Source: Escherichia coli (GTDB lineage Bacteria > Pseudomonadota > Gammaproteobacteria > Enterobacterales > Enterobacteriaceae). From it: 64,000 nt of DNA. Below are positions 58,601 through 61,600 of this stretch, in pieces. How positions within the stretch are numbered: the first letter of the stretch is position 1; each line of letters opens with the position of its first letter. The stretch is taken from NCBI RefSeq assembly GCF_009931435.1, contig NZ_CP043414.1; one strand, written 5' to 3'. The position numbers were made by a program.

Positions 58601-61600
58601 GTATGAGAAGCGCTATGCTGATGACCGTACGAAATTACTGCAAGAAAAACAGATTGCACAATTTACTGCCGCAGACGCGCTGGCAGCCGATCGCCAGTTA
58701 TTTTCATCTCCAGCGGATATCACGTTTGTCGTTGTCGGTAATGTCGCAGAAGACAAACTTCTGCCGTTAATTACGCGTTACTTAGGATCAATAAAACACT
58801 CTGATTCGCCATTAGCCGCAGGTAAACCATTAACTCGCGCGACGGACAACGCATCGATTACTGTAGAAGAACAAAATGAACCTGTGGCACAGGTTTCACT
58901 GTGGAATCGTTATGATTCCCGGACACCTATTAATCTGGCGACACGTATGGCGCTGGATGCCTTTAACGTTGCCCTGGCTAAAGATCTGCGCATTAATATT
59001 CGTGAACAGGCATCTGGGGCATACAGCGTTTCTTCTCGCCTCTCGGTTGATCCTCAGGCCAAAGATATCACCCATTTGCTGGCTTTTACTTGTCAACCAG
59101 AACGGCATGAAGAACTGTTAGCGTTAGCGAATGAAGTGATGGTTAAGCGTCTGGCTAAAGGGATCAGTAAGCAAGAACTGAACGAATACCAGCAAAACGT
59201 TCAGCGCAGCCTCGATATCCAACAGCGTAGCGTTCAACAATTAGCGAACACCATTGTAAATAGTCTTATTCAATATGACGATCCTGCCGCATGGACTGCG
59301 CAGGAGCAATTATTGAAACAAATGACGGTAGATAATGTTAACACTACGGTTAAACAATATCTTTCTCATCCGGTGAATACCTTTACCGGAGTATTACTAC
59401 CAAAATAATGACGTCCCCCGTCAACATATCGTTGGCGGGGGTTTTAGCAACAGACGTTATTTTATATAATAATTTTATGAATGCGTTCAAAATAACAACC
59501 GAGTACTAATAATGATATTTTAAGGGCTAATTTTTATGTGATAATTCACCAGAGTTAGAAAGCGCGTCAAAATAATGACATACAACACCACACTACAATC
59601 CATAACACCCTACGCTATTGTTTTTTAACGTAAATATATTTTTCCCATAATATCTCACGATAAATAACATTAGGATTTTGTTATTTAAACACAAGACCTT
59701 TGCACTTGCTTACTTTATCGATAAATCCTACTTTTTTAATGCGATCCAATCATTTTAAGGAGTTTAAAATGGATAAGAAGCAAGTAACGGATTTAAGGTC
59801 GGAATTACTCGATTCACGTTTTGGCGCTAAGTCTATTTCCACTATTGCAGAATCAAAACGATTTCCGCTGCACGAAATGCGCGATGATGTCGCATTCCAG
59901 ATTATCAATGATGAGTTATATCTTGATGGCAACGCTCGTCAGAATCTGGCAACGTTCTGCCAGACCTGGGACGACGAAAATGTCCACAAGTTGATGGATT
60001 TATCCATTAACAAAAACTGGATCGACAAAGAAGAATATCCGCAATCTGCAGCCATCGACCTGCGTTGCGTAAACATGGTTGCCGATCTGTGGCATGCGCC
60101 TGCGCCGAAAAATGGTCAGGCCGTTGGCACCAACACCATTGGTTCTTCCGAGGCCTGTATGCTCGGCGGGATGGCGATGAAATGGCGTTGGCGCAAGCGT
60201 ATGGAAGCCGCAGGTAAGCCGACTAACAAACCAAACCTGGTGTGCGGTCCGGTACAAATCTGCTGGCATAAATTCGCCCGCTACTGGGATGTGGAGCTGC
60301 GTGAGATCCCTATGCGCCCCGGTCAGTTGTTTATGGACCCGAAACGCATGATTGAAGCCTGCGACGAAAACACCATCGGCGTGGTGCCGACTTTCGGCGT
60401 GACCTACACCGGTAACTATGAGTTCCCGCAACCGCTGCACGATGCGCTGGATAAATTCCAGGCCGACACCGGTATCGACATCGACATGCACATCGACGCC
60501 GCCAGCGGTGGCTTCCTGGCACCGTTCGTCGCCCCGGATATCGTCTGGGACTTCCGCCTGCCGCGTGTGAAATCGATCAGTGCTTCAGGCCATAAATTCG
60601 GTCTGGCTCCGCTGGGCTGCGGCTGGGTTATCTGGCGTGATGAAGAAGCGCTGCCGCAGGAACTGGTGTTCAACGTTGACTACCTCGGCGGTCAGATTGG
60701 TACTTTCGCCATCAACTTCTCCCGCCCGGCGGGTCAGGTGATTGCACAATACTATGAATTCCTGCGCCTCGGTCGTGAAGGCTATACCAAAGTACAGAAC
60801 GCTTCCTACCAGGTTGCCGCTTATCTGGCGGATGAAATCGCTAAACTGGGGCCGTATGAGTTCATCTGTACGGGTCGCCCGGACGAAGGCATCCCGGCGG
60901 TTTGCTTCAAACTGAAAGATGGTGAAGATCCGGGATACACCCTGTATGACCTCTCTGAACGTCTGCGTCTGCGCGGCTGGCAGGTTCCGGCTTTCACTCT
61001 CGGCGGTGAAGCCACTGACATCGTGGTGATGCGCATTATGTGTCGTCGCGGCTTCGAAATGGACTTTGCTGAACTGTTGCTGGAAGACTACAAAGCCTCC
61101 CTGAAATATCTCAGCGACCACCCGAAACTGCAGGGTATTGCCCAGCAGAACAGCTTTAAACACACCTGATAACGTTTAACGGTAACGGTGTCCCGAAACG
61201 AACCCGTTTCGGGACAATTTCCAAAGTCTGTTCACTGGCATTAGCAACGGAAAATATTGTTCTGAATACGCTTCAGAACAAAACAGGTGCGGTTCCGACA
61301 GGAATACCGTTTTAGGGGGATAATATGGCTACATCAGTACAGACAGGTAAAGCTAAGCAGCTCACATTACTCGGATTTTTTGCCATAACGGCATCGATGG
61401 TAATGGCTGTTTATGAATACCCTACTTTCGCAACATCGGGCTTTTCATTAGTCTTCTTCCTGCTATTAGGCGGGATTTTATGGTTTATTCCCGTGGGACT
61501 TTGTGCTGCGGAAATGGCTACCGTCGACGGCTGGGAAGAAGGTGGCGTCTTCGCCTGGGTATCAAATACTCTGGGGCCGAGATGGGGGTTTGCAGCGATC

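Follow-up and report, generated by a model that had tools for sequence, protein, structure and literature searches.

Whether an Escherichia coli chromosome that carries a complete transposon a few genes upstream of gadBC still retains the site through which this acid-resistance operon is activated is the question raised by the 64-kb stretch of DNA analyzed here (hereafter the window). The GAD box of the K-12 gadBC promoter was reportedly described by Castanie-Cornet & Foster in 2001 and by Ma et al. in 2003. This element is the site of an RcsB/GadE heterodimer (Castanie-Cornet et al., 2010; PMC2887963). GadE by itself fails to bind it, and earlier reports of binding by GadE only have been ascribed to RcsB that co-purified with the protein (PMC2887963). 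In K-12, deletion of gadE changes gadB by a log2 value of -6.44 and deletion of gadX by a log2 value of -0.60, such that the contribution of GadX to gadB is less than 2-fold versus more than 50-fold for GadE (PMC4918353).

The GAD box and proximal promoter of gadBC

A sequence-only reading of this DNA had placed an exact GAD-box 20-mer upstream of gadB. The 20-mer TTAGGATTTTGTTATTTAAA indeed has a single exact match in the window, on the plus strand (Table 1), and this site remains the sole match even when up to three mismatches are allowed, a search in which shuffled sequences give a mean of 0.02 matches. The box lies within the 360-bp intergenic region between pqqL and gadB, with its last base 79 nt upstream of the gadB start codon, and it is identical at 20 of 20 positions to the boxes of both K-12 gadB and K-12 gadA. 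The identity includes the conserved G residue of the left half, whose alteration in mutation M1 abolishes binding (PMC2887963), and the same 20-mer is given elsewhere as the characterized GadE site (PMC4918353). In an alignment of the window with the K-12 gadB promoter, the mapped site is free of mismatches, and its distances from the -35 hexamer, the start site and the start codon are those of K-12.

The genes downstream of the box are those expected of a GadE-regulon promoter. Relative to K-12, gadB exhibits 97.1% nucleotide identity, with 41 nucleotide differences, one amino acid difference (D153N) and no internal stop codons, and gadC exhibits 96.0% nucleotide identity, four amino acid differences and likewise no internal stops. 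The GadB N-terminus, MDKKQVTDL, and the flanks of the promoter are both of the gadB type, not the gadA type. A megablast search with positions 59300-60100 yields matches in 5,425 of 5,426 complete E. coli genomes, where the region is annotated as pqqL and gadB. Moreover, the window is collinear with the chromosomes of K-12 MG1655 and MFDS1022581 in the order ydeP-safA-ydeO-ydeN-ydeM-yddA ... yddB-pqqL-gadB-gadC-digH, and the neighborhood yddA-yddB-pqqL-gadB-gadC-digH is thus common to the window and K-12. From these comparisons, TTAGGATTTTGTTATTTAAA is very probably the known GAD box, located at the orthologous site of the E. coli gadBC promoter, with its binding by RcsB/GadE taken from K-12. 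No feature of the sequence speaks against this assignment. A GAD box at gadB is already known biology, and its presence here is ordinary and already explained.

Table 1. Positions in the window of the gadBC regulatory elements, the flanking genes and the transposon
Feature	Coordinates	Strand	Evidence or remark
ydeO, activator of gadE in the EvgA-YdeO-GadE cascade, intact, 253 aa	36996-37757		ORF
yddA, 5' part, 1540/1686 nt	41340-42879	+	Chromosome alignment; Pfam ABC_membrane_2 and ABC_tran on truncated ORF
Tn1721 (Tn3 family, TnAs1-type transposase), complete, in yddA	42880-54007		99.95% identity to annotated copies
yddA, 3' remnant	54008-54158		Insertion 146 nt before stop codon
yddB, TonB-dependent receptor, intact, 790 aa	54196-56568	+	ORF; annotation in K-12 and MFDS1022581
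pqqL, M16 metallopeptidase, intact, 931 aa	56613-59408	+	ORF; annotation in K-12 and relatives
Predicted pqqL intrinsic terminator hairpin with an 11-bp stem and UUUU after it	59415-59441	+	-21.3 kcal/mol, z = -4.5
Distal gadB regulatory region (-333 to -95), rare divergent haplotype	59409-59647	+	77.8% identical to K-12
GadX/W-motif match AGGGCTAATTTTTATGTGAT	59523-59542		Motif scan, 2 mismatches
GAD box, putative RcsB/GadE activator site of the gadBC promoter	59670-59689	+	-72 to -53, counted from the transferred start
Spacer, GAD box to -35 hexamer, 16 bp	59690-59705	+	Holds both substitutions relative to K-12
Putative -35 hexamer TTGCTT (-36 to -31)	59706-59711	+	Identical to K-12; tentative assignment
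Putative RcsB repressing box CGATAAATCCTA, immediately before the -10 region	59719-59730	+	Identical to K-12 gadB
Putative gadB start (59742, +/-1) and 27-nt 5' UTR	59742-59768	+	Transferred from K-12
Shine-Dalgarno AAGGAG	59757-59762	+	Within gadB 5' UTR
gadB, glutamate decarboxylase B, intact, 466 aa	59769-61169	+	ORF, alignment, annotation in matching genomes
gadC, glutamate:GABA antiporter, intact, 511 aa	61325-62860	+	Alignment, annotation in relatives

The proximal promoter is nearly unchanged as well. From position 59648 to the ATG, 119 of 121 nucleotides are identical to K-12, and the only two differences (59693 G>A at -49 and 59696 T>A at -46) both reside in the spacer that separates the box from the -35 hexamer. 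The length of this spacer is the same as that published for gadA (PMC2887963). Given that the spacers of K-12 gadA and K-12 gadB are almost wholly different in sequence even though both promoters are activated by GadE, it appears that the sequence of the spacer is unconstrained; its length is preserved in the window. No difference from K-12 occurs in the -10 region, the 27-nt leader or the Shine-Dalgarno sequence, and the putative RcsB repressing box differs from that of gadA only by a C in place of G at its left end, precisely as stated for gadB in the original report, where the footprint over this element was shown for gadA only (PMC2887963).

To position the box relative to transcription, we transferred the K-12 start site by alignment. 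This start, 27 nt upstream of the ATG, was derived from the primer names gadB-173 and gadB+77 (PMC3050690, after Tramonti et al.), and it carries an uncertainty of one nucleotide in either direction because the amplicon measures 249 bp versus the stated 250 bp. With the start so placed, the center of the box would fall at -62.5, or about 63 bp upstream, and 16 bp separate the box from TTGCTT. This geometry agrees with three published observations: an account in which the 20-bp GAD box has its center 63 bp ahead of the gadA and gadBC starts and precedes the -35 hexamer by 16 bp (PMC2887963), the DNase footprint of RcsB plus GadE on gadA from -50 to -76 (PMC2887963), and the GadE ChIP-exo peak at gadBC, whose center is at -62.5 (PMC4918353 supplement).

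Two motif scans of the window bear on the same region. A generic sigma-70 scan did not call the gadB promoter, which is expected for an activator-dependent promoter with weak hexamers and does not constitute evidence against it. Likewise, a scan of the window with the ChIP-exo-derived GadE motif TTARGAWWWWAAATA, allowing up to two mismatches, returned AT-rich matches only and did not recover the true box, and is uninformative.

Compared with the K-12 gadBC promoter, therefore, the window has the same 20-bp box, position, 16-bp distance, core promoter, RcsB box, 5' UTR and downstream genes, and it differs in the substitutions at -49 and -46 and in the DNA upstream of -95, which is only 78% identical. 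Compared with the K-12 gadA promoter, the window shares the 20-mer, the -35 region, the RcsB box, the -10 region and the Shine-Dalgarno block, whereas both flanks of the box and the first codons are different, which clearly identifies the locus as the gadB paralogue.

This pattern of conservation extends across the species. Among seven diverse alleles that we aligned (those of the window, K-12, UTI89, 21B8, TKEC21-59, H9 and MFDS1022581), the 20-mer and the 10 bases preceding it are invariant and the 5' UTR is 100% identical, while bases only a few positions away from the box vary and allele-to-allele identity in the distal region is 64-92%. The box has thus been kept while neighboring non-coding DNA has changed. 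Of the E. coli records, 3306 match a 45-nt query centered on the box at 100% identity and a further 2068 match it at 95-99%, with a match in 5,372 of the 5,426 complete E. coli genomes. In the five sampled alleles with mismatches to this query the changes are located in the flanks, with none in the box.

In K-12, an RcsB/GadE heterodimer binds the box, whose center precedes the start by approximately 63 bp and which is separated from the -35 hexamer by 16 bp, and the bound heterodimer activates transcription of gadB and gadC more than 50-fold under acid conditions and during stationary phase. The start site, the protein binding and the size of the activation are those of the K-12 literature and would apply to this chromosome by analogy. 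Box and spacing, core promoter, putative RcsB box, 5' UTR and the two structural genes are all conserved, and the cis requirements for such activation are thus in place. The sequence-only reading had gone further in presuming that regulation of gadBC by GadE is intact. As judged from the DNA of the window, this holds for the cis element of the GadE/RcsB input (the box, its spacing and the core promoter), and since GadE alone does not bind, the claim is better worded as activation by RcsB/GadE.

A divergent distal haplotype and the regulators of gadBC

The part of the gadB upstream region that does depart from K-12 is the distal segment, which exhibits 53 differences in 239 nt, as compared to 94-97% identity in the flanking coding DNA. 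The divergence is uneven. From -281 to -194 the sequence is about 90% identical, but from -193 to -95 identity between the window and five other alleles is only 64-69%, whereas other alleles are 75-92% identical to one another over this segment, which is hypervariable species-wide. The haplotype is also rare: only 13 of 5431 E. coli records (~0.2%) are at least 95% identical to the window over positions 59300-60100. MFDS1022581 is identical to the window in the intergenic part. We sought the distal haplotype in the representatives of other Escherichia species that carry the 20-mer and did not find it there, with the best match, from Escherichia sp. E1V33, reaching 71%.

This haplotype covers the positions of the K-12 GadX ChIP-exo peaks at -184 and -225 (Seo et al., 2015; PMC4918353 supplement). 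The best match to the GadX/W motif changes from AGGTCTGATTTTTACGTGAT in K-12, with one mismatch to the consensus, to AGGGCTAATTTTTATGTGAT in the window, with two mismatches, and the core of the motif changes from AGGTCTGAT to AGGGCTAAT (59523-59531). Fine regulation of gadBC may consequently differ in this strain, given the 22% divergence from K-12 across the distal GadX/GadW region. We nevertheless consider it rather unlikely that the rare haplotype alters the input of GadX and GadW, and possibly of H-NS, while the GadE/RcsB input is conserved. If this were true, the lineage would have a differently tuned gadBC response in which, for example, modulation by GadX/W has been lost. Because the GadX contribution in K-12 is less than 2-fold, the distal divergence leaves standing our main conclusion that the activating site is retained. 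Within one intergenic region, then, a proximal GadE/RcsB module that is near-invariant species-wide adjoins a hypervariable distal GadX/GadW region, a contrast that fits the published roles of GadE as the dominant activator and GadX as a minor one.

An intact cis site could still be without effect if a factor acting in trans, such as gadE, rcsB, rpoS or a member of the EvgA-YdeO branch, were mutated or absent. The genes gadE, rcsB and rpoS all lie outside the window, as do gadX/W and gadA, and MFDS1022581, whose gadB promoter allele is the nearest, has a ydeO annotated as frameshifted, showing that components of the circuit do decay in this lineage. In the window itself, however, the neighboring EvgA-YdeO branch is intact, with ydeO accompanied by full-length safA (65 aa) and ydeP (759 aa). 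Furthermore, purifying selection on gadB and gadC is evident, the 41 nucleotide differences in gadB having produced a single amino acid change, and conservation of the 121-nt proximal promoter would be unexpected if the system were defunct. Thus, we regard a failure of GadE control in trans as improbable, and favor the view that the conserved cis site would still serve RcsB/GadE activation.

Tn1721 in yddA

The sequence-only reading had located a transposon insertion two genes upstream of gadB. There is an insertion upstream, but it resides inside yddA, the third gene upstream, with the two intact genes yddB and pqqL in between. yddA is the ABC transporter gene of the yddA-yddB-pqqL cluster, and it is split by a complete Tn1721 whose gene order in the window is a truncated tnpA, a cysteine hydrolase family gene, a DMT family transporter gene, tet(A), tetR(A), tnpA, tnpR and the MCP-like orfI. 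The MCP, PAS and HAMP domains of orfI were confirmed, and the element matches an annotated Tn1721 copy across its whole length at the identity given in Table 1.

The boundaries of the element are those of a Tn3-family insertion. Terminal inverted repeats of 38 bp (42880-42917 and 53970-54007) match at 35 of 38 positions, a third repeat is internal (48368-48405), and the target sequence AACTA is duplicated as 5 bp on either side (42875-42879 and 54008-54012). That the chromosome resumes with an overlap of exactly 5 bp marks the insertion as a simple transposition. Relative to known chromosomal and plasmid copies of Tn1721, the window shares the 99.95% full-length identity, the 38-bp repeats, the internal repeat and the 5-bp duplication, and what differs is the insertion site in yddA. 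The yddA::Tn1721 junction is absent from all 5,426 complete E. coli genomes searched. We also considered a shared insertion context with NMBU-W12E19, where the match at first sight continues 4-10 bp past the repeats, and rejected it because the target duplication there (TACTT) differs and the continuation is a chance extension with mismatches.

Could the transposon change gadBC expression, either by read-through from orfI or through polar or topological effects? The orientation of orfI makes this conceivable, as the gene (52241-53818, plus strand) faces yddB, pqqL and gadB, and no obvious barrier is present between the transposon end at 54007 and yddB. However, 5.66 kb separate the end of Tn1721 from the GAD box, a distance occupied by two full-length genes and by the strong predicted pqqL terminator, which begins 7 nt past the pqqL stop codon and combines its 11-bp stem with a run of U residues. 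The gadBC operon also has its own promoter, which is unchanged from K-12 outside of the two spacer substitutions and the distal region. On the strength of this distance, the two intact genes and the terminator, the insertion should not affect gadBC, and we consider an effect on the operon very unlikely. Rather, the consequences of the insertion should fall on yddA, and possibly on the expression of yddB and pqqL, since orfI reads outward toward these two genes.

A tetracycline-resistant E. coli with Tn1721 in yddA thus keeps the cis-acting and structural parts of its main operon for glutamate-dependent acid resistance. Retention of these gadBC parts is the default expectation for E. coli.

Recurrence of the 20-mer and other features of the window

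Among GTDB r220 species representatives, the exact 20-mer is confined to Escherichia, with the exception of three isolated matches in unrelated metagenome-assembled genomes. The E. coli representatives carry two copies each, Escherichia sp. E1V33 also carries two, and E. albertii and E. whittamii carry one each. The three isolated matches (loci L017, L018 and L020, from one Lentisphaeria and two Bacteroidales MAGs) contain the exact 20-mer once each, in 298 Gb of sequence. These occurrences are consistent with chance, as at least ~0.5 matches are expected in 298 Gb for an AT-rich 20-mer.

The same occurrences are what could be said for dismissing the 20-mer at gadB as a chance AT-rich match that has no regulatory role, a reading that we consider extremely improbable and that is in practice refuted by synteny and by positional identity with the mapped K-12 site, where the 20-mer forms a conserved block amid variable DNA, and by the expectation for 64 kb, in which only 0.02 chance matches are predicted even at up to three mismatches. 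The favored assignment of the 20-mer as the GAD box of gadBC is left unaffected.

Several other features of the window were recorded in comparison with the genome R32_14_1F. An autotransporter gene of the ECSE_1600 family (7398-12866) carries an in-frame stop codon at 11808-11810, yielding separate ORFs at 7398-11810 and 11862-12866. In R32_14_1F, the autotransporter of the same family is encoded by one ORF of 1806 aa that aligns to the window without gaps, and for this reason the interruption looks like a nonsense mutation. An IS21-family insertion sequence of 1,954 bp (20688-22641), which encodes an IstA-like protein with an rve domain (21533-22555) and IstB (20754-21536), splits a gene for a leucine-rich-repeat protein into parts at 19692-20738 and 22569-23246; this gene is a single ORF in R32_14_1F.

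Finally, at approximately 17962-17971 the window is without a segment of ~12.8 kb that is present in R32_14_1F, a genome that is 99.4% identical over window positions 1-17971. In R32_14_1F, this segment encodes a pair of site-specific integrases and an AAA ATPase, together with genes annotated as an 'ABC-three component system', and the corresponding site in the window adjoins an ISNCY transposase gene (16427-17926) and a gene encoding a SIR2-domain protein (14868-16220).
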